Below are positions 50,411-64,000 of a DNA stretch of 64,000 bases, piece by piece. A program made the position numbers and the translations under genes. The first letter of the stretch is position 1. Each line of letters begins with the position of its first letter. The DNA is taken from NCBI GenBank assembly GCA_034414575.1, contig DAOULZ010000011.1, positions 14,318-78,317 of the forward strand, in the 5' to 3' direction. Origin of the DNA: Dehalococcoidales bacterium. Lineage in GTDB: Bacteria > Chloroflexota > Dehalococcoidia > Dehalococcoidales > UBA5760. Under the pieces are notes generated by a model. The model worked only from the letters and a program-made list of their open reading frames with translations. It was not told the origin of the DNA and searched no databases.

Positions 50411-51322
50411 CTACGCTACGATCGGGGCCCGGCAAATCAGCACCGAGTACTCGGCATGCCTGGCCACTGTCTCCGCCACATTCCCTAACAGGAATGACTC
50501 GATGCCGGTTAGTCCCCTGGCTCCGAGCGTAATCAGGTCAGGTTGGTATTCTTTAGCAACCGCCAGGACAGACTCGGCGGCTCCTCCCCGCATGACTAAA
50601 GATAACGTTTTGTACCGTACCCTGGAAAACTGCCGTTCGCTTTCGGTCAATATTTTTCGAGCCTCTTCTTCTTCGGCTGCCTGAAGTTGGGCAACCAGCT
50701 CTTGATTAGCTTTAAGGTCAAGCGTCGGCGTTCTGATCACCGCTTCAATATGCGATTGAACCGCCGTCATCAGGATAACCTGACTGCGCGGTAGGGGAAG
50801 ACTCAGCAAAAACTGGGTTGCTATCTCTGAATAGCTGGAGCCGTCGGTAGCAAGCAGGACACGGCTGACGGAAGAAGTCTCCTTCTTAACCAGTAGAACA
50901 CTGGCATCGGTATGTCTCATAACCTTCTGGGCGACACCGCCGAGAAAGAACTGCGGAGAGTCGGTCAGCCCCTTGGCCCCCATCAAGATGAGGGAAGCAT
51001 CGTTTTCTTTAGCCGCCCTCAGAATTGATTCAGCCGGATTCCCCCAACGCACCAGGCTTTCCAGTCTCAGCCTGGTGGTACCAAGTTCCTGAATTGCCAT
51101 TTCCACCAAATTGGCAGCCTGTTCTCGCTGTCTTTCCTGCCTAGCGCTCCTTGCTGAAGCCTTACCTCTAAACAGGTCAAGACTCAACCCACCCAGGAAG
51201 CTGTGGTCAGGCACGACCGTCATAACCGTAGCCTGAGTCCCGCGAGGCAATTTGAGTGCCTTAAGCATACTTATAGCCATCTGAGAATATGGTGAACCGT
51301 CAATTACCATAAGAACCTTCAT
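50411..51322 (-). CDS. tandem universal stress protein (two USP domains)
   Basis: 303 aa. Two copies of the MKVLMVIDGS.../...LILMGAKGLT...GGVAQKV pattern are present. Confidence 0.8.
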   Translation of the reverse strand: MKVLMVIDGSPYSQMAISMLKALKLPRGTQATVMTVVPDHSFLGGLSLDLFRGKASARSARQERQREQAANLVEMAIQELGTTRLRLESLVRWGNPAESILRAAKENDASLILMGAKGLTDSPQFFLGGVAQKVMRHTDASVLLVKKETSSVSRVLLATDGSSYSEIATQFLLSLPLPRSQVILMTAVQSHIEAVIRTPTLDLKANQELVAQLQAAEEEEARKILTESERQFSRVRYKTLSLVMRGGAAESVLAVAKEYQPDLITLGARGLTGIESFLLGNVAETVARHAEYSVLICRAPIVA

Positions 51323-51394: not shown

Positions 51395-53437
51395 TCACCT
51401 CTCTAACTCTAAGGATGGTATAGCCTCCTTTACTGTGGCAACTGCCTCCGAACTAATTGCCTCCGCCGCCTTTAAGATACCCTCAGCCGCTTCAGCCGCT
51501 GCTGATTCCTCCGATACCCCGGTCTGTTCGGCTATTTCTTTAGCCGTCTCTATTGTCTTGGCGGTGGCGGCCGCCAGGTCGCCATGCGCCTCGGCAGTCC
51601 CCTGAATGATACCCTGGCTTGCCCCCAGTATGGCATCATACGGGTCCGCCCCCGCCCGGGTGGAGGCTTGCACCACACCTGTCACCACGGCAGAGGCCAC
51701 CTGCCCAACATCTACGGGTTTATCATCGGCAACATGGACAGCACCGCGCGCCATCTGCCGTGAAATTTCTGCTCCGTGCACCCTTACCTCTGCTTCCTTA
51801 CCCTTCCATATACCGTTCAGACCATTCTCCAAGGACTTGGCGATTCTCTTAGTTACCCGACGACCACGCATGGCGGCCATGGTAGCCACCCGGCCAATCT
51901 CCGCAATCTGGTAGGCGGTAACACCCAGGGCAGCATCCAGTCCTACTGGCACTTTCCTTAAATTGCCGAAGGGGAAATTGGCAGCCAGGTTAAAAGCCGG
52001 TACTGAGCTCATAGGTCGAGAGAGCTCCCGCGTCGGAAACATTAGTGATTCTAGCATTACTTCGCGACTTACTTCGCCTTCCTCACGCAGTCTCGCCAGC
52101 ATTGTCAGGGTAATAAGCCCGATAACAAAGGCAATGCCAAACAAAAAATCAAAACCAATCATACTGACGACTGGCAGCTGAGTAGAACCGGACGGAGCAA
52201 GCCAAGTGAGGGTCAGGTCAAATTGACGCGTGCTGAAGAAGGTGGCTAGTAAGCCCCCTACCAAAGGCCCCAAACCAGCTCCCAGGTTGGTGGCTAGGGA
52301 TGAAGTTGCTAGATAAGAGGTTGCCTCTCCTTTAGGGGCCATCTTCAAACCGATAGTGCCGATGGTGAGGGTTACCCCGGCGTTGGCAATACCGGCGAAT
52401 ATATGCAATATAAATAATAGGGGCATGGTAAGGAAGTATCTTTCCGGCATGGTGGTAAATATCCAGCCCATAATGACGAGCAGATAGAGCGAGGCGCATA
52501 TGGAGAGGACTACCTTATTGCCAAAACGGTCGACAAAATTGCCCCACACCCGCAGAAACAGTATGTTGAAGGCTTGCCCGATGATGCTGAGGACGATGAC
52601 CCAGGTTAGGGATAGCCCAAGCCGCTGGAGCATGTAGACAGCAAAGAATGGCACCGCCAGATTCAGGGCAAAGTTCCAAGAGAACAGAAACTGTATCAGC
52701 TGCCTGAAGTTTACGTCTTTAAGGGGTGCCGTAACTTTCTGCCAGAGGGAAGGTTGAGATCCGGTTACCGGCTGCATTAACGGCTCGGGCATACGCGACA
52801 TGAAGATGGGACTTAAAAGCCCGAGGCTCAAAGCGCCGAAGAGAAGCACGTAGGTATAGCCGAAGATAGCACTTCCTGCGGCGGCATGATTAAGCCAGTA
52901 ATCCACAAACAGGGCGGCTGATAGGCTGAAGGCGACACCGGTAGCCGTGGCAAAGGCCAGTCGTCTTGAAAAAAACCTGCCCAGTATTGCCTGTGGGACC
53001 AGGTCGCGAATCCAGCCATTCCAGGCAGCGTTGGTAGAGGCGTGAAAAAGGCCGCGGATGGCCATCAGTGCCAGCAGCAGTGATATCGCTCTCGCTCCAG
53101 GAATGGCCATAAATGTCGGGATGAGGGCGATTGGTACCCAGAACGACTGGGCGATAAACCAGCTAATTACCGCCATCGCCTTACGCTGCCGGAATTTTTC
53201 CACTAGGGAGATAGCGGGTAGCTGCAGGATTTGCATCAGAAATGGGAGCGCTGCCAGAACACCGATGTGCAGACTATCGGCGCCCAGCGCTAGGGCATAG
53301 GCTGCTAGGAAGCCGCTGGTGGTAATACTGTTAAAACCCAGGGACGCAGTCCCCTCAAGGGTTAACCAGCGCAGGCCGGAGGTTAACTCCGGCTCGGAGA
53401 TAGTGGGTTTAGGCTTAAAAATCTGGAGCAACTTCAC
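51395..53437 (-). CDS. MFS transporter with a ~200-aa C-terminal soluble Ala-rich extension
   Basis: About 12 TM helices span the first ~470 aa. A non-membrane tail follows, ending ...AAATAKTIETAKEIAEQTGVSEESAAAEAAEGILKAAEAISSEAVATVKEAIPSLELER. Confidence 0.7.
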   Translation of the reverse strand: MKLLQIFKPKPTISEPELTSGLRWLTLEGTASLGFNSITTSGFLAAYALALGADSLHIGVLAALPFLMQILQLPAISLVEKFRQRKAMAVISWFIAQSFWVPIALIPTFMAIPGARAISLLLALMAIRGLFHASTNAAWNGWIRDLVPQAILGRFFSRRLAFATATGVAFSLSAALFVDYWLNHAAAGSAIFGYTYVLLFGALSLGLLSPIFMSRMPEPLMQPVTGSQPSLWQKVTAPLKDVNFRQLIQFLFSWNFALNLAVPFFAVYMLQRLGLSLTWVIVLSIIGQAFNILFLRVWGNFVDRFGNKVVLSICASLYLLVIMGWIFTTMPERYFLTMPLLFILHIFAGIANAGVTLTIGTIGLKMAPKGEATSYLATSSLATNLGAGLGPLVGGLLATFFSTRQFDLTLTWLAPSGSTQLPVVSMIGFDFLFGIAFVIGLITLTMLARLREEGEVSREVMLESLMFPTRELSRPMSSVPAFNLAANFPFGNLRKVPVGLDAALGVTAYQIAEIGRVATMAAMRGRRVTKRIAKSLENGLNGIWKGKEAEVRVHGAEISRQMARGAVHVADDKPVDVGQVASAVVTGVVQASTRAGADPYDAILGASQGIIQGTAEAHGDLAAATAKTIETAKEIAEQTGVSEESAAAEAAEGILKAAEAISSEAVATVKEAIPSLELER

Positions 53438-56820: not shown

Positions 56821-57312
56821 ATGGCAATGGAGAGACGGAGAAGAGATAGAAGCTTGGTTCCCTGGAGACCATTCCAGGACTTACAAGAGATGGAACGGCG
56901 CTTTGACGACATCTTCGGCCGGCCGTTCTGGCCCATGATGTGGAGGCGTATCCCTACAATTGAACCAGGCTGGCTGCCGGCTATAGAGGTGTTTGAGAAG
57001 GAGGACAGGTTTGTGGTGAAGGCTGACCTCCCTGGTATGAAACAAGAGGATATAAGCGTCTCAGTTGTAGGTGATACACTGACTATCAAGGGGGAGAGAA
57101 AGTCTGAGACTGAGGTCAAGGAAGAAGACTATCATTGCTGTGAGCGTTCGTATGGTAGCTTCTCCCGTTTGATATCTCTTCCCTCCAACGTGGATGCGAA
57201 AAAGATCGAGGCTAGTTATGCGGAGGGAGTGCTAGAGATTATTATTCCCAAAACCCCAGAGATTAAACCGAAGAAGGTCACAATAACAACCAAGAAGAAA
57301 GAAGCAAAGTAA
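56821..57312 (+). CDS. hsp20: Hsp20/alpha-crystallin small heat-shock protein
   Basis: PAIEVFEKEDRFVVKADLPGMKQEDISVSVVGDTLTIKGERK...GVLEIIIPK. AGGAGG upstream. Confidence 0.9.
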   Translation: MAMERRRRDRSLVPWRPFQDLQEMERRFDDIFGRPFWPMMWRRIPTIEPGWLPAIEVFEKEDRFVVKADLPGMKQEDISVSVVGDTLTIKGERKSETEVKEEDYHCCERSYGSFSRLISLPSNVDAKKIEASYAEGVLEIIIPKTPEIKPKKVTITTKKKEAK

Positions 57313-57533: not shown

Positions 57534-58007
57534 ATGGATAAAGATAGAGTCAGTGAACCTGGTGCGGCTGAGGCTAAAAAGAACGACAGAATACACATGA
57601 AACCCCTTCCGGATATTCTGGATGAGATGGATGCTAATATTCGAGCCGCAGCTGAGGCGGCCAGAAGGGCAGAGGAGGCAGCCAAGGTCGCGAAAGGGGC
57701 TGCTGCTGCCGCCACTGCGGCTTCGAAGGAGGCGCAAGGTGCTGCGGAGAAAGCAGCGGAGGAGGCTACCAGACAGGCTCGTGAAGCCTTGGGGGAAGCA
57801 GCGAAAAAAGCTAGCGAGGCAGCCGAGGATGCAAAGAGCGCAGCCAATGAAGCTGCCAGGGAAGCAACCAAGAAGGCAAGAGAGATAGCCGAAGAGGTGA
57901 AGGATCTGGCTCTAGAGCTGGCCTTGGTGATCAGAAACGCTAACATACATAGCTCTGAAGCCTTTGTAAAAGAGATTGATGCTTTTAGGAACAAATGGTC
58001 AAAGTAA
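57534..58007 (+). CDS. Ala/Glu/Lys/Arg-rich helical protein, short paralog (157 aa)
   Basis: It shares the N-terminal block RIH.KPLPDILDEMDANIRAAAEAARRAEEAAK with the 59175 gene (1 difference in 33 aa). No TM segment. The - strand ORF 57518..58159 is its compositional shadow. Confidence 0.65.
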   Translation: MDKDRVSEPGAAEAKKNDRIHMKPLPDILDEMDANIRAAAEAARRAEEAAKVAKGAAAAATAASKEAQGAAEKAAEEATRQAREALGEAAKKASEAAEDAKSAANEAAREATKKAREIAEEVKDLALELALVIRNANIHSSEAFVKEIDAFRNKWSK

Positions 58008-59004: not shown

Positions 59005-59174
59005 CAACTCCTCCAAGTCGGAGCTTGTAGTAATCAATAGCTCAGCCGACCCTTCTAGTAAATGGGTGCAAAGGAGGGTGTGCCTATTGAAGCATTCGCA
59101 AGTTACAAAGGCTGCAACTTTTCTATTTGATACTCTCTCTACTTCCTCTACTATCTCTTGTAAGGAGGGCTGAA

Positions 59175-60989
59175 GTGGCTAAGAACACAGGCGAAACGCC
59201 CGGTGAAAAGGGGCCAGGATATGTTGATAGAATACATGCCAAACCCCTTCCAGACATCCTCGATGAGATGGACGCCAACATCAGAGCCGCCGCTGAGGCA
59301 GCTAGAAGGGCTGAGGAAGCAGCTAAGGCAGCCAAAGGGGCCGCTGGCGCTGCCACCAAGGCGTCTGATGAAGCTGCCAAACGGGCTGAAGAGGCGCGCT
59401 TAGCTGGAGAGAAGGCGGCAGCAGATGCTACCAAAGCCGCCAGCGAAGCAGCTGCCAGAGCTGAGGAGACAGCGCGGGCAGCCAGGGAAGCAGCCGAGGA
59501 AGCTGCTAGGAAAGCCGATGAGGCAGACAAGGGCACTAGAGAAGCGGCTGAGGCATTCAGGCGTGCGGCGGAGGAGGCTGCCACTAGAGCCGATGAGGCA
59601 AGCAAAGCGGCCGTAGCGGCAGCCAAAGCAGCCGTAAAGCAGGCTGAAGAGGCAGCCGCTGAGGCAGCCAGAAGGGCTGAAGAAGCCGCCACTAGAGCCG
59701 ATGAGGCAGCTGAGGCAGCCACCCGAGCTTTAGAGGAGGCGGCCAGAAGAGCCGAAGAAGCCGCTGCTAAAGCTAGTGGCAGAGCTGACGAGGCAATCAT
59801 AGCTGCTGAAGCAGCCACCAAGGCATCGGAGGCAGCTAGCCAGGCTGCCGCGGCGGCAACCAGAGAGGCACAAGAATCTGCCAGAAGAGCCGAAGAAGCT
59901 AGCTTAGCAGCACAACAGGCTGCTGAAGGTGCTAGTGAAGCCGCTGAAGGAGCCGCCCAACGGGCTGAAGAGGCTGCCTTGAAAGCTGAGGAAACAGCTA
60001 GTGCCGCGAAGTATGCTGCCGAAGAGGCTACCAAAAAGGCGGAGGATGCAGACCTAGCAGCTAGAGAATCGGCACTGGCGGCAACTAAACTTGCTGAAGA
60101 GGCCGCTAGGAGAGCTGAGGAGGCAGCTTTGTCGGCAAAAGCAGCGGTTGAAGCAGCTATCGAAGCTGCTAATGCTGCCATTAAGATGGCTGAGGAGAGC
60201 ACTAAAGCCGCCAAGGATGCTACCGAAGAGGTCGCACTTAACCTTACCCCGGAAACCGCTCGACGGGCTGACGAGGCTGGTAGAAAAGCCAAAAGAGCAG
60301 CGGCATCCGCCTTCAGGGCCGCGGAGAAAACTACCAGGGAAGCTGAGCTTGCTGACACAGCCGGGGACATCGCTATCGCCGCTGCCGAAAAGGTATCAGG
60401 GCCGCTCGCTGAGCGAGTTGATGAGGCGGGTAGAGATGCCAAAGCGGCCGCTGAAGCTGGATTTGAGGTAGCTGACAAGACTATTGGAGCAGCCGAGCAG
60501 GCAGATATCGCCGGGGACGATGCCGTTGGCGCTGCGGTTAGGGGTATCGAGCAACTGATAGGTAAGGCAGAGAGTGCCGCCAGACAGGCTAGCGAAGCAG
60601 GCGTAATTGCCGTTGGTGAAGCCACCAGAAGGGCCGATGAAGCAACCAAAGCGGCACTGGCAGCAACAAAGGCATCGGAGGCTGCTGAAGCCGGTGTTAG
60701 AGCAGTTCGAGAGGAAGCCACCGCAGCTCAGAAAACCGGCCTGAGGGCTGAGGAAGCAGCCGCTAAAGCAGCTAAAGCAGCCGAGAGTGCCGTAAAGGCA
60801 TCTGAAGAGTTAGCGGCTGAAGCTGCCGAGAAGGCTGAAGAAGCAGCCGCAAAGTTTGACCTCGTGCCGAAACTGGTGAAGGAAGTACTTGGTTCCCGAC
60901 AGTTCCTGCTCATTATCATACTAGCTGTCGTCGGGGCAATCTTTGCTGCCGTGGCCATTAGCGTGGGCATAAGCTCTCTCGGCCCGTAA
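59175..60989 (+). CDS. Ala/Glu/Arg/Lys-rich helical protein, long paralog, C-terminal tail anchor (~604 aa)
   Basis: The ORF track starts at 59127. I prefer the in-frame GTG at 59175 with AAGGAGGG 5 nt upstream, which gives an N-terminus parallel to the short paralog. There is no signal peptide. The C-terminus QFLLIIILAVVGAIFAAVAISVGISSLGP is a single TM helix. Confidence 0.7.
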   Translation: MAKNTGETPGEKGPGYVDRIHAKPLPDILDEMDANIRAAAEAARRAEEAAKAAKGAAGAATKASDEAAKRAEEARLAGEKAAADATKAASEAAARAEETARAAREAAEEAARKADEADKGTREAAEAFRRAAEEAATRADEASKAAVAAAKAAVKQAEEAAAEAARRAEEAATRADEAAEAATRALEEAARRAEEAAAKASGRADEAIIAAEAATKASEAASQAAAAATREAQESARRAEEASLAAQQAAEGASEAAEGAAQRAEEAALKAEETASAAKYAAEEATKKAEDADLAARESALAATKLAEEAARRAEEAALSAKAAVEAAIEAANAAIKMAEESTKAAKDATEEVALNLTPETARRADEAGRKAKRAAASAFRAAEKTTREAELADTAGDIAIAAAEKVSGPLAERVDEAGRDAKAAAEAGFEVADKTIGAAEQADIAGDDAVGAAVRGIEQLIGKAESAARQASEAGVIAVGEATRRADEATKAALAATKASEAAEAGVRAVREEATAAQKTGLRAEEAAAKAAKAAESAVKASEELAAEAAEKAEEAAAKFDLVPKLVKEVLGSRQFLLIIILAVVGAIFAAVAISVGISSLGP

Positions 60990-61058: not shown

Positions 61059-61373
61059 TTAAATCACACTACTGCTTCTCGGTTTTAGGTGTCTTTTTCT
61101 GCGCTTCCAGCCTAGCATCACCAGCAGCTCACCTACTTCGGCGTCGCTTATTTCGTCCTTGAGCGGCATGCCGGGGTGGATTTTATACTTATTCTGCCGG
61201 CCGATTTTAGTTTTTGATATATACCCCGCTTCCTCGAGGTCTATTATTATACGATGGGCCGTCCTCTCGGTTACCCCAATATTGTCTCCAATTTCCCTGG
61301 CGGTAAGGTTCGGGTGTTTAGCAATAGTTGCTAAGACCAGTCCATGGTTCGTAATGAACGTCCACTCACTCAT
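61059..61373 (-). CDS. small winged-HTH transcriptional regulator, copy B
   Basis: ATG at 61373 (MSEWTFITNHG...) with GGAGGA upstream. There are 6 differences from copy A in the first 93 aa, and the C-terminal tails diverge. Confidence 0.8.
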   Translation of the reverse strand: MSEWTFITNHGLVLATIAKHPNLTAREIGDNIGVTERTAHRIIIDLEEAGYISKTKIGRQNKYKIHPGMPLKDEISDAEVGELLVMLGWKRRKRHLKPRSSSVI

Positions 61374-61510
61374 TTTGATCCTCCGGCGAAACATTTTCCA
61401 AAAACCACTTGACAAACTCTGAAATTTATTTATAATAATTTTCTAGACATATATTTCTAGTAACATATTTGTTGTAATATGATACCAGAAACTTATTAAA
61501 AAATCAAGCC
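61096..61510. repeat. direct repeat copy B
   Basis: See copy A. The offset is 7560 nt in the CDS part and 7550 nt in the promoter part. Confidence 0.85.
61409..61507. promoter_or_regulatory. second face-to-face promoter/operator block
   Basis: P(+): TTGACA at 61409-61414, 16-nt spacer, TATAAT at 61431-61436. Imperfect palindrome CTAGACATATATTTCTAG at 61443-61460 (2 mismatched positions). P(-): TTGATT (reverse complement of 61502-61507), 17-nt spacer, TATCAT (reverse complement of 61479-61484). Confidence 0.6.
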
Positions 61511-61611
61511 TCGGCAAATGGTTCTAATTGGTAGGCAAACGTGATGGAGGGAAGGTAGCCTGGGCAGTAAGGCCTGGATTATACAGCTCTCAAAATGGAA
61601 GAGGTGATGAA

Positions 61612-61920
61612 ATGATTAGAGTGACGAGTTCGTTAGCGGAGAAAATGCTGGGTAATGTCCCTGAGGATAAGCGCTTTTGGTGCTGCGACGGGAAGGTAAT
61701 CAAAAACCTGAGGGAATTAGTGACGTTCCTCCACAGTATGAGTGAAGAGACCTTTCGCTACCATTCGACCGAGACCGGCAGTGACTTTGTTAATTGGATC
61801 AGAGACGTAATTGGTGATGAAAAGCTCGCCAGGGATATACAAAGTAGCCATAACCGGTTTCAGGCAGCGAAGAGGCTGACTGACAGGATCGCCTGGCTGG
61901 AGAGTAAGATCGTAGCTTAA
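61612..61920 (+). CDS. hypothetical 102-aa protein
   Basis: The ORF track starts at 61528. ATG at 61612 has GGAAGAGGTGA upstream. Sequence: MIRVTSSLAEKMLGNVPEDKRFWCCDGKVIKNLRELVTFLHSMSEETFRYH...DFVNWIRDVIGDEKLA. It is the first gene downstream of the copy-B P(+). Confidence 0.5.
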   Translation: MIRVTSSLAEKMLGNVPEDKRFWCCDGKVIKNLRELVTFLHSMSEETFRYHSTETGSDFVNWIRDVIGDEKLARDIQSSHNRFQAAKRLTDRIAWLESKIVA

Positions 61921-62034: not shown

Positions 62035-62364
62035 GTGATAAACCTGTGCTTAAGGAAAAAGAGTGAAGCCAAGAGACTATCTGAGTCGGTGCAGAATTAT
62101 CTGAGGCGACAGTTTATGCTTCAGCGAGAATACATCGAAAAGCTCAGGTGTTTTGAAATAGATGGCCTCTTCCGTGAACAGCCAGTAAGACGAATTCGCA
62201 TCTTCAATCCGGATCTAGCGAAAAAGGATAGCCTGGCTATTCGTACTAATTCGGACCTGGAGCTCCACCCGGAGATACTGGTCTTCGAGGGGCATATTGA
62301 CGCCGAGGGTAAAATCTACTTTGCTGACCGGAGGTCAACGTCAGGAAAGGCAGGCTGTAAATAG
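62035..62364 (+). CDS. hypothetical protein
   Basis: 109-aa ORF with a GTG start and no recognisable motif. Confidence 0.35.
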   Translation: MINLCLRKKSEAKRLSESVQNYLRRQFMLQREYIEKLRCFEIDGLFREQPVRRIRIFNPDLAKKDSLAIRTNSDLELHPEILVFEGHIDAEGKIYFADRRSTSGKAGCK

Positions 62365-62442: not shown

Positions 62443-63789
62443 GTGAACACATCACCGAGGGCCACAAAAAGCCGGTCAGCATATGGTAGTCAAGCAAAAA
62501 CAGCCAGTGAAACACACGGCGAGGGTGTCGCCGAAGAGGAACCTCCTGGCAAAACTGACACCTTCAGTAGTTTTGACGAAGAACCCCCGGGTAGAAGCGC
62601 CGCCAAACGATATAGGCTTTTCGGTCACGTACCGGATAACGCCTGGAACGATTGGAGGTGGCATTTTCGTAACCGCATCACCACGATTGATGAACTGGCA
62701 AACTTTATCCCGCTATCAAGCGAAGAGCGGGCGCAGCTCAAGCTGGTAACCGTGAAGTATCCCCTTTCCATTACTCCCTATTACCTTTCGCTGATAGACC
62801 TGAACGACCCCGACGACCCGATTAGAAAACAGGCGATTCCCTCCATCCTGGAGATAACGATGGGTATGATGGGCCGGGAAGACCCCCTCGATGAAAAGGG
62901 AGACACGGTCGTTCCCGGACTGGTTCACCGCTATCCTGACCGGGTCTTAATGGTACTTACCGATATCTGCCCCATGTTCTGTCGTCACTGCACTCGCAAG
63001 CGGGAATGGCAAAGTGGCGGTTGGGTGCGGACTCCAGCCGAGATTAGAGCCATGCTTGATTATATTCGGCAGCACAAAGCCATCAGGGATGTCATCATCT
63101 CCGGCGGCGACCCGCTGACGCTCTCTACGCCCCGGCTGGAGGGGGTCATCTCCCGAATTAGGGCTATAAAGCATGTTGAAATCATCCGTATCGGTACCAG
63201 GTTTCCGGTGGTATTGCCACAGCGTATTGACCACGAACTGTGCCGCATGCTGTCGCGATACAGCCCGATATGGCTTAACACGCACTTTAACCACCACCAC
63301 GAGATTACCCCGGAAACCGCCGCCGCCTGCGACCGTTTGCTCCGCAGCGGGGTTCCGGTTAACAACCAGTCGGTGCTCCTGCGTGGGGTGAACGACAGCG
63401 TTACCGAGCAGATGAGGTTGTGCCATGGGCTGCTCAGGATTAAGGTGCGCCCCTACTACCTGTTCCAGTGTGATGAGGTACAGGGCACCGAGCACCTGCG
63501 TACTACGGTGGAGGTTGGGCTCAACATCATCGAGGGGATGCGCGGACACACCTCGGGGCTGGCGGTGCCCACCTTCGTTGTTGACCTGCCTCAAGGGGGC
63601 GGTAAGGTGTCCCTGCAACCGGACTACGTTGTCGCCAAGAAGAGGGGAGAACTTATGCTCCGGAACTACGAGGGCCGACTCTTTCGCTGTCGGAATCCGA
63701 AGGTGTCGGCAGACCTAGAGCCGATACCGGAACCACTGAGGAACCTGGATAATTCCGACGCCGGGTTACTGGTAGAAACAGGAGTCTAA
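62443..63789 (+). CDS. kamA: lysine 2,3-aminomutase family radical SAM enzyme (KamA/AblA-like) with a ~60-aa low-complexity N-terminal extension
   Basis: Radical SAM CPMFCRHCTRK, WNDWRWHFRNRI, ISGGDPL and HFNHHHEIT; 448 aa; GTG start. Confidence 0.85.
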   Translation: MNTSPRATKSRSAYGSQAKTASETHGEGVAEEEPPGKTDTFSSFDEEPPGRSAAKRYRLFGHVPDNAWNDWRWHFRNRITTIDELANFIPLSSEERAQLKLVTVKYPLSITPYYLSLIDLNDPDDPIRKQAIPSILEITMGMMGREDPLDEKGDTVVPGLVHRYPDRVLMVLTDICPMFCRHCTRKREWQSGGWVRTPAEIRAMLDYIRQHKAIRDVIISGGDPLTLSTPRLEGVISRIRAIKHVEIIRIGTRFPVVLPQRIDHELCRMLSRYSPIWLNTHFNHHHEITPETAAACDRLLRSGVPVNNQSVLLRGVNDSVTEQMRLCHGLLRIKVRPYYLFQCDEVQGTEHLRTTVEVGLNIIEGMRGHTSGLAVPTFVVDLPQGGGKVSLQPDYVVAKKRGELMLRNYEGRLFRCRNPKVSADLEPIPEPLRNLDNSDAGLLVETGV

Positions 63790-63804
63790 TATAAGGAGTA
63801 AGCG

Positions 63805-64000
63805 ATGCACATCGGTCTAACCTATGACCTTAAAGAGGCGATTAGTCCGGAAATAAACAGCCCTGAGGATGCCCTGGAAGAGTACGACTCCAGCGAAACA
63901 GTCGAGCTTATTGCTACAGCGCTTGAGTCGGCCGGGCATTCGGTGGTCAGGCTGGGTGGGGGAGCAGAGTTTCTGGTTAACATCCTGCGGGAAAGGGTTG
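63805..64000 (+). CDS. D-alanine--D-alanine ligase-like ATP-grasp protein; partial, runs off the right edge
   Basis: AAGGAG lies 8 nt upstream of ATG at 63805. MHIGLTYDLKEAI...EEYDSSETVELIATALESAGHSVVRLGG resembles the N-terminal domain of Ddl-family ATP-grasp enzymes. Confidence 0.55.
   Translation, partial: MHIGLTYDLKEAISPEINSPEDALEEYDSSETVELIATALESAGHSVVRLGGGAEFLVNILRERV

Follow-up and report, generated by a model that had tools for sequence, protein, structure and literature searches.

A conserved operon of Dehalococcoidia joins a lysine 2,3-aminomutase gene to genes for two D-Ala-D-Ala-ligase-like ATP-grasp enzymes and an acetyltransferase

RESULTS

Genes at the right end of the window

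We analysed a stretch of 64,000 nucleotides from a Dehalococcoidales bacterium (GCA_034414575.1, contig DAOULZ010000011.1; hereafter the window), at whose right end a gene of the lysine 2,3-aminomutase family, kamA, is followed by the start of a gene for an ATP-grasp enzyme resembling D-alanine-D-alanine ligase (Ddl). We call this enzyme AG1; in related loci its gene is followed by genes for a second Ddl-like ligase, AG2, and for a GNAT acetyltransferase. The features of kamA and of the visible part of the ligase gene are the following.

62443..63789, + strand: kamA, encoding a KamA-family lysine 2,3-aminomutase of 448 amino acids, with a GTG start (54.6% identity to 2A5H over 357 amino acids)
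62443..62604, + strand: N-terminal extension of KamA, amino acids 1-54, not in the crystallised enzyme (alignment to 2A5H)
62533-62553 and 62575-62595, + strand: two EEEPPG[KR] motifs, KamA amino acids 31-37 and 45-51 (orthologue alignment)
63793..63798, + strand: AAGGAG ribosome-binding site, 6 nt ahead of the ligase ATG (read from the sequence)
63805..64000, + strand: first 65 codons of AG1, a Ddl-like ATP-grasp ligase, clipped by the window end (identity to P0143)

The stop codon of kamA (TAA, 63787-63789) and the ATG of the ligase gene at 63805 are separated by a 15-nt spacer. A first-pass annotation made from the sequence alone had described this arrangement and had called the next gene Ddl-like, and both statements hold for the complete protein. 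The 65 visible codons on their own gave no family match in profile searches. The residues that they encode agree without exception with residues 1-65 of P0143 (335 amino acids, from a 96,401-bp NCBI contig), and a 100% match to the window KamA, P0001, comes from a contig of equal length; on these two grounds we take P0143, which matches PF07478 (Dala_Dala_lig_C), to be the complete AG1 of the window genome. Relatives of KamA were collected by scanning one genome per GTDB species, whereby 287 stretches were found to encode relatives, and the best 80 of these were analysed as loci.

KamA is of the lysine 2,3-aminomutase type

The window KamA matched the Pfam families PF04055 (Radical_SAM) and PF12544 (LAM_C), the latter at positions 1-58 of 127 only, that is, in its first half. 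The sole NCBIfam cut-off that it passed was that of the generic KamA subfamily TIGR00238 (331.9 bits versus 199.2). The models for glutamate 2,3-aminomutase (TIGR04368, 432.9 bits, cut-off 650) and arginine 2,3-aminomutase (TIGR04468, 411.8 bits, cut-off 600) did not reach their thresholds, and the EpmB model TIGR03821 scored lowest of the KamA-family models (234.9 bits, cut-off 369.3), so that a grouping with EpmB, which the first-pass annotation had wished to see checked, is not what we find.

For residue numbering we used 2A5H, the Clostridium subterminale lysine 2,3-aminomutase, which is the only solved member of the family. The CPMFCRHC stretch of the window KamA aligns with C125, C129 and C132 of 2A5H, the radical SAM CxxxCxxC motif, and these cysteines together with R134, D293, D330 and K337 are unchanged in 80 of 80 KamA sequences. 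We take C125, C129 and C132 to be the cluster ligands, R134, D293 and D330 to bind the carboxylate and the epsilon-ammonium group, and K337 to form the aldimine with pyridoxal phosphate (PLP). Since the identity to 2A5H is 54.6% and all catalytic and lysine-binding residues are kept, we strongly infer that KamA would convert L-lysine to beta-lysine. The glutamate 2,3-aminomutase presumably has Lys and Asn where the lysine enzyme has D293 and D330, a signature that Ruzicka and Frey are said to have described in 2007; because both positions are Asp here, glutamate is an unlikely substrate. On residues alone, a basic amino acid other than lysine may be conceivable. By its residues and its identity, then, the window KamA classes as lysine-aminomutase-type, as the first-pass annotation had it, yet it lies outside the curated AblA threshold.

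The position of C268 in 2A5H is occupied by Ser in the window KamA and by Ser, Thr, Asn or Asp in its relatives, and the C-terminal tail, 22-50 amino acids long, is cysteine-free in 56 of the 80 sequences. According to what Lepore et al. reportedly found in 2005, C268 and a C-terminal CxCxxC bind an inter-subunit zinc in the Clostridium enzyme; given the loss of these cysteines, the quaternary structure of this KamA may differ from the canonical tetramer. The tail of this clade (about 63685-63786 in the window) retains a short AGLLVETG-like C-terminal motif.

kamA heads a conserved operon with two ligase genes and a GNAT gene

The 80 loci are labelled nearly all as Dehalococcoidia, Dehalococcoidales or Chloroflexota. 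An orthologue of AG1 directly follows kamA in 78 of them, and because of this the adjacency of the two genes is far beyond chance. The order is kamA, AG1, AG2 and a GNAT of about 155 amino acids, with short spacers or overlapping genes, and all four are present in 56 of the 57 loci whose downstream DNA reaches 3.6 kb or more. The sole locus without ligases, L035, has a run of N straight after kamA and hence is no clean exception. In the closest relatives (L081-L084, 84-85% KamA identity) the gene order is unchanged, and next comes a 580-aa protein in which a GNAT is joined to a histone-deacetylase-fold domain, sometimes with a MarC-family membrane protein between the operon and this fusion. 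The first-pass annotation had proposed that the ligase stands instead of the usual acetyltransferase AblB; this part did not hold, as the operon continues with the second Ddl-like ligase and the GNAT.

The genes beyond the window end in this genome were placed from three sources, namely P0143, P0417 and L091. P0417, found by a search with the cluster GNAT, is a GNAT of 152 amino acids on the same 96,401-bp contig, and L091 is a 1.4-kb Logan contig that carries the C-terminus of AG2, a GNAT identical to P0417 and the N-terminus of the GNAT-deacetylase protein. Since P0143 and P0417 lie on a contig of the length found for P0001, L091 shows the order AG2, GNAT, GNAT-deacetylase and the related loci agree, the order in the window genome is almost certainly KamA-AG1-AG2-GNAT-(GNAT-deacetylase). 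A search of the metagenome collection with 35-mers of the kamA/AG1 junction gave no exact match.

Searching P0143 against 1.84 billion cluster representatives yielded 965 relatives at E<=1e-30, among which are fusions of KamA and AG1 in a single polypeptide (P0311, P0337, P0351 and P0364; 739-784 amino acids, Radical_SAM, LAM_C and Dala_Dala_lig_C). These fusions retain the QCD and (V/I)D...GGGK signatures. At the other end of the operon, AG2 and the GNAT are fused in L042 (511 amino acids) and L071 (491 amino acids). By virtue of the two kinds of fusion, AG1 is tied to the product of the aminomutase and AG2 to the acetyltransferase. Diverged versions of the module were seen in L087 (a KamA-AG1 fusion, then AG2, then GNAT; 35-46% identity to the Dehalococcoidia proteins), L088 (a KamA-AG1 fusion, an MFS transporter and AG2) and L090 (kamA directly ahead of AG1; 52% and 44% identity), and because these loci carry it, the module must be older and wider than the Dehalococcoidales clade. 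For the distant single-domain relatives of AG1 the contigs were too short to inform, L090 excepted.

The two ligases are Ddl-like but differ from Ddl at the D-alanine sites

In the related loci AG1 has about 334 and AG2 about 335-360 amino acids, and the two share about 30% identity. The AlphaFold model of P0143 has a pLDDT of 86.4, and all of its top 50 PDB matches by Foldseek are Ddl or Van enzymes (TM about 0.8, 24-27% identity); by sequence, too, the nearest solved proteins to the ligases are Ddl enzymes (E about 1e-31, 24-30% identity). The best Ddl subfamily model, NF002378, has a cut-off of 243, under which both AG1 (172.9 bits) and AG2 (150.5 bits) stay, and every other Ddl and Van model scores them far lower. 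Public annotation from several sources names these ligases 'D-alanine-D-alanine ligase'.

We compared the residues of AG1 and AG2 by alignment to E. coli DdlB, whose numbering is used here. K97, K144, E180, E187, R255, D257, E270 and N272, which serve ATP, magnesium and the acyl-phosphate, are kept in both, and because these residues are retained AG1 and AG2 are probably catalytically active. A different picture emerged at H63, K215/Y216, G276, S281/L282 and the Glu15 loop, which we take to line the two D-alanine sites. H63 is replaced by an invariant Glu in both ligases. In AG1 the pair K215/Y216 reads Ser/Leu and L282 has become an invariant Asp; in AG2 the pair reads Lys/Trp, L282 is Gly and G276 an invariant Asp. 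Where Ddl has its Glu15 loop, AG1 has an invariant D-x-L-E-E-Y-D-S, in a low-confidence stretch of the AlphaFold model. The acidic residues so acquired would fit a cationic substrate such as beta-lysine.

The first-pass annotation had left room for a genuine cell-wall D-Ala-D-Ala ligase that merely adjoins kamA, and the fold, the top matches and the public names would all suit such an enzyme. The scores under the subfamily cut-off and the replaced D-Ala-site residues speak against it, as do the presence of two paralogues locked in an operon with kamA and the GNAT gene, one of them fused to KamA, and the lack of mur genes nearby. We thus regard this explanation as one that can be virtually discarded, and we conclude from the residue patterns and model scores that AG1 and AG2 are D-Ala-D-Ala-ligase-like but are not the cell-wall Ddl.

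The relatives of P0143 also include tandem AG1-like double ATP-grasp proteins of about 650-720 amino acids. In both contigs examined (L086 2505-5310 and L089 322-3509; ligases of 682-697 amino acids), a Peptidase_S58 gene stands directly after the tandem ligase gene. Peptidase_S58 (the DmpA/BapA family) includes beta-peptidyl aminopeptidases, and the pairing may belong to a distinct system for both the synthesis and the cleavage of beta-peptides.

That the ligases of the kamA operon act iteratively and build a beta-lysine oligomer or polymer, cyanophycin- or poly-beta-lysine-like and capped by the GNAT, seems to us quite improbable. Iterative ATP-grasp polymerases do exist (RimK and the G domain of cyanophycin synthetase), two distinct ligases could form backbone and branch bonds, and AG1-like tandem ligases are elsewhere paired with S58 peptidases; but known Ddl-type enzymes catalyse single ligations, and AG1 and AG2 come without a primer-binding or Mur-ligase-type domain.

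The GNAT is unlike AblB and recurs fused to a deacetylase

The cluster GNAT has 152-159 amino acids and weakly resembles RimI-like and aminoglycoside 6'-N-acetyltransferases. Whether an ablB-type acetyltransferase lies downstream of kamA had been posed in the first-pass annotation as a decisive question: a GNAT is present, parted from kamA by the two ligase genes, but neither the three cluster GNATs tested nor the GNAT-deacetylase fusion matched the AblB model TIGR03827 at E<=10. The fusion was located as follows.

L081 10073-11815, L003 13947-15725 and L091 997-1437 (N-terminal part): GNAT-deacetylase fusion of 580-592 amino acids, with an apparently intact acetyl-CoA motif

It lies near the cluster in 15 of the 80 loci and is an unusual pairing of a writer and an eraser within one protein. 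Its histone deacetylase (HDAC) half is nearest to the bacterial acetylpolyamine amidohydrolases (9gkz, E=4e-72; also 6phr, 3men and 3q9b). Acetylpolyamine amidohydrolases act on small N-acetylated alkylamines, and this agrees with a deacetylase half that would strip the acetyl group off an epsilon-type amine in a small molecule.

These data also bear on the simplest explanation of the operon, a plain N-epsilon-acetyl-beta-lysine pathway in which KamA and the GNAT work as AblA and AblB do and the ATP-grasp genes are passengers. The constant presence of the GNAT gene in the operon is in keeping with it, and so is the fact that AblA is the top equivalog model for KamA. The fusions, however, bind the ligases to both of the other enzymes, the two ligase genes always stand between kamA and the GNAT gene, and the GNAT is short and outside the AblB model. 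Hence, we hold the plain pathway to be improbable.

The N-terminal extension of KamA carries tandem EEEPPG[KR] motifs

Relative to 2A5H, KamA is extended at its N-terminus by about 51-54 amino acids, and not by the roughly 60 first estimated. The extension itself is real, and the GTG start is supported because the extension is conserved from residue 1 in close KamA relatives. The PP motif is present in two copies in 72 of 79 orthologues, in three copies in 4 and in one copy in 3; its consensus is E-E-E-P-P-[GS]-[KR], and in 60 of 80 pairs the copies are 14 residues apart. Outside the motifs the extension is variable. Degenerate EEEPPG[KR] copies also occur in two of the distant KamA-AG1 fusions, P0364 and P0311. 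PPG is a classic motif of ribosome stalling that depends on elongation factor P (EF-P), and the tandem motif may be a docking element or may serve EF-P-dependent translational control.

The PPG motifs, as typical EF-P-dependent stall sites in KamA itself, are one point in favour of another explanation, in which beta-lysine would be attached to a protein, as an EF-P-type modification or a RimK-type tail, and would not enter a free metabolite. Two further points are that EpmB, a paralogue of KamA, provides the beta-lysine of EF-P and that proteins are the targets of RimK-type ATP-grasp enzymes. Yet EpmB is the weakest KamA-family match, there is no efp homologue in the window or the 80 loci, nor was an EpmA-like gene seen, the fold of the ligases is that of Ddl, a small-molecule enzyme, and the linked deacetylase is nearest to the small-molecule acetylpolyamine amidohydrolases. 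Protein beta-lysylation therefore appears very improbable to us. A link to EF-P by gene neighbourhood was rejected on the same absence of efp homologues.

Upstream region and neighbouring genes

The region to the left of kamA contains a divergent regulator gene, a predicted promoter, two small open reading frames (ORFs) and, further upstream, stress genes and a transporter gene.

61059..61415, - strand: MarR/winged-helix regulator, divergent from the kamA operon (PF13412, PF01047, PF12802)
61409..61436, + strand: perfect sigma-70 consensus TTGACA-16-TATAAT, 12/12, overlapping the MarR gene start (consensus match only)
61528..61920, + strand: ORF of 130 amino acids, first after the predicted promoter, with a weak DUF5752-like C-terminus (PF19027, 19.8 bits, cut-off 23)
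62035..62364, + strand: conserved ORF of 109 amino acids directly upstream of kamA (no family match in profile searches)
50411-51322, - strand: tandem Usp
51395-53437, - strand: MFS transporter of 680 amino acids with a long C-terminal extension (relatives at L081 217-2262 and L003 6949-8966)
54162-54626: Usp
56821-57312: Hsp20
57534-58007, + strand: Ala-rich protein of 157 amino acids (no Pfam match)
59127-60989, + strand: Ala-rich membrane-anchored protein of 620 amino acids, ending in a hydrophobic anchor (no Pfam match)

In 43 of the 61 loci with enough upstream DNA, a MarR homologue in divergent orientation is found no more than 1.5 kb ahead of kamA, and 61409..61436 is a plausible predicted promoter and operator for the kamA operon; from this site to the window end we found no terminator-like site on the + strand. 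A riboswitch upstream of kamA was considered and rejected, there being no credible Rfam match. Homologues of the 130-aa ORF are near the cluster in 11 of the 80 loci. Genes for orthologues of the 109-aa protein immediately precede kamA in L001-L005 and L081-L085, and L019, L033, L035, L052 and L053 have more distant ones; this small family (109-135 amino acids; L081 5113-5520) has the core YLRRQFML.REYIEKLR.FE...HPEILVFEGHIDAE.KIYFADRR and a variable C-terminus.

The stress cassette noted in the first-pass annotation (Usp, Hsp20 and Ala-rich proteins) is real, with the MarR-type gene and the two small ORFs standing between it and kamA; its linkage is confined to this lineage, and the compatible-solute role that was read from it stays an inference. 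The two Ala/Glu/Lys-rich proteins share the N-terminal sequence KPLPDILDEMDANIRAAAEAARRAEEAAK and look LEA- (late embryogenesis abundant) or apolipoprotein-like. A 592-aa orthologue of the longer one adjoins kamA in L081-L084 (L081 3301-5079). The long antisense ORF at 59123-60721 (- strand) is likely to be a shadow ORF of that Ala-rich coding strand. The base composition is unremarkable.

In a survey in which the neighbouring ORFs were clustered and seven recurrent families were annotated, the recurrent neighbours of the cluster were MarR, MarC after the GNAT (24 loci), the deacetylase fusion (15) and a Liv-type ABC amino-acid transporter (10-14). Lysine fermentation was rejected, as no kamDE/kdd/kce/kal-like family was recurrent near the cluster among the seven annotated. 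The 680-aa MFS gene adjoins the MarR gene in several relatives and, in the window, lies 8 kb upstream, past the Usp, Hsp20 and Ala-rich genes.

These neighbours keep alive a serious rival, namely that the product is exported. It would then be a beta-lysine peptide that is secreted or bioactive, akin to an antibiotic, a metallophore or a signal; it would be made by two L-amino-acid-ligase-type enzymes, in the manner of phaseolotoxin or rhizocticin, leave the cell by MFS or MarC export and be under MarR control. MarR-MFS pairs are typical of efflux systems, MarC directly follows the GNAT in the 24 loci, the MFS gene stands by MarR in relatives, and in L088 an MFS gene has its place between the KamA-AG1 fusion and AG2. 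On the other hand, the MFS and MarR genes may form a unit of their own, there is no evident gene for self-resistance or tailoring, and a near-universal, syntenic module found in hundreds of species-level genomes of Dehalococcoidia (287 relatives; 56 of 57 loci) looks more like core physiology than like a secondary metabolite of patchy occurrence. On balance we judge a secreted peptide unlikely, while giving it more weight than any of the alternatives discussed above.

DISCUSSION

A proposed route to an N-acetylated beta-lysine amide

We consider it probable that kamA, AG1, AG2 and the GNAT gene form a four-gene biosynthetic operon that would turn lysine into beta-lysine, carry out two ATP-dependent amide ligations and end with an N-acetylation. 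Following KamA, AG1 would make an ATP-dependent amide bond in which beta-lysine takes part, a substrate that we assign to it because of its fusion and adjacency to KamA. AG2 would then form a second ATP-dependent amide bond, and the GNAT would acetylate an amine that is still free, an acetylation step supported by the AG2-GNAT fusions. The amidohydrolase fusion could remove the acetyl group again, for turnover or regulation. The outcome would be a small N-acetylated di- or tri-amide that contains beta-lysine. Most likely this product would be a cytoplasmic protective solute like N-epsilon-acetyl-beta-lysine or N-acetylglutaminylglutamine amide, a role that is our first choice because of the analogy to these known solutes and the local stress genes, and that is the weakest step of the proposal. 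Gene identities, conservation, fusions and residue patterns are established here; what AG1, AG2 and the GNAT act on, in which order the steps run and what the product does in the cell are extrapolations.

Several points weigh against this proposal. The step order and the ligation partners are guesses, and no homologue is characterised, the nearest solved ligases being Ddl enzymes of 24-30% identity. AblA (TIGR03820), the top equivalog model for the window KamA, gives 466.8 bits, under its cut-off of 525.4; the protein covers positions 5-362 of the 417 in this profile, and much of the shortfall is probably due to the absent C-terminal part. Among the 80 loci, the stress genes are linked to the cluster in the window and its closest relatives only. 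The carriers of the operon come from groundwater, peat, lake sediment and marine sites, which gives no pointer to salt. Lastly, the recurring transporters (MarC, the MFS by MarR and the MFS inside the L088 operon) could mean that the product is exported and not accumulated.

The observation on which the first-pass annotation was built is confirmed, and its interpretation is partly supported: a non-canonical beta-lysine amide or peptide remains the best reading of the product, strongly strengthened by the KamA-ligase fusions in other lineages. A bolder form of the proposal, which we find distinctly doubtful, is that Dehalococcoidia, a subsurface lineage abundant worldwide, make a new family of beta-lysine molecules, N-acetylated beta-lysyl tri-amides or short oligomers, for which the aminomutase would hand its product directly to two neofunctionalised Ddl ligases, with EEEPPG[KR] acting in docking or EF-P control.

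To our knowledge, the roles of beta-lysine are few, comprising the methanogen osmolyte N-epsilon-acetyl-beta-lysine, the modification of EF-P, lysine fermentation and a few antibiotics. The operon is a fourth type of gene context for beta-lysine, conserved across hundreds of Dehalococcoidia species and backed by fusions. It thus directs attention to an uncharacterised metabolite of bacteria that abound in sediments and aquifers and are difficult to grow in culture. The operon also suggests that descendants of Ddl were recruited to chemistry outside the cell wall, and that the labels 'D-alanine-D-alanine ligase' and 'lysine 2,3-aminomutase' in public annotation conceal a distinct pathway. In the open-access full-text literature we found no paper that connects ATP-grasp ligases to a 2,3-aminomutase in the way described here, an earlier description being possible, and aminomutases were mentioned with Dehalococcoidia only as B12 enzymes. 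The operon is apparently undescribed so far, as a variant of known beta-lysine and ATP-grasp chemistry.

Comparison with known systems

Judged by the models and residues examined, the tested proteins are not members of AblB, EpmB, Ddl or PylC. The radical SAM half of the pathway compares best with the C. subterminale enzyme, with which KamA shares its overall identity, the CxxxCxxC motif, R134, D293, D330 and the PLP lysine K337, and from which it differs by the replaced C268, the mostly cysteine-free tail and an N-terminus longer by about 51 amino acids. Likewise, the ligases share with Ddl and Van the fold (TM about 0.8) and the residues for ATP, magnesium and the acyl-phosphate, whereas they fall under the curated cut-offs, are altered in the Glu15 loop and at H63, K215/Y216, G276 and L282, and are bound to the kamA operon, AG1 being sometimes fused to KamA.

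In the PylB/PylC pair of pyrrolysine biosynthesis, a radical SAM enzyme rearranges lysine and an ATP-grasp enzyme of the Ddl superfamily then forms an amide bond. The logic of the pathway proposed here, radical-SAM rearrangement and then ligation, would be the same; however, PylB is outside the KamA family, no PylD is present here and a second ligase and a GNAT are found instead, and no PylC structure was among the 42 PDB sequence matches of AG1 at E<=1e-3. Ngg, the N-acetylglutaminylglutamine synthetase, combines a GNAT and an ATP-grasp domain to make an N-acetylated dipeptide osmolyte, a domain pairing that the AG2-GNAT fusions mirror, and in PhtQ/PhtU (phaseolotoxin) and RizA/RizB (rhizocticin) two ATP-grasp ligases build a tripeptide, as two may do here. 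Unlike Ngg and these paired L-amino-acid ligases, the present system has ATP-grasp domains of the Ddl branch and would use a beta-amino acid as building block, and no Ngg or L-amino-acid-ligase family was among the NCBIfam matches listed.

A close parallel is AblA/AblB of methanogens and some bacteria, where a lysine 2,3-aminomutase and a GNAT are likewise encoded in one operon, AblA being also the top equivalog for KamA; in the window lineage, moreover, the operon sits among stress genes, a further likeness. The present operon differs in that it places two ATP-grasp genes between those for aminomutase and GNAT, its GNAT has about 155 amino acids and no AblB match, and its KamA is without the C-terminal stretch of the AblA profile and bears an N-terminal extension with EEEPPGK repeats. 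By analogy, the operon would work like AblA/AblB with an inserted peptide-ligase stage.

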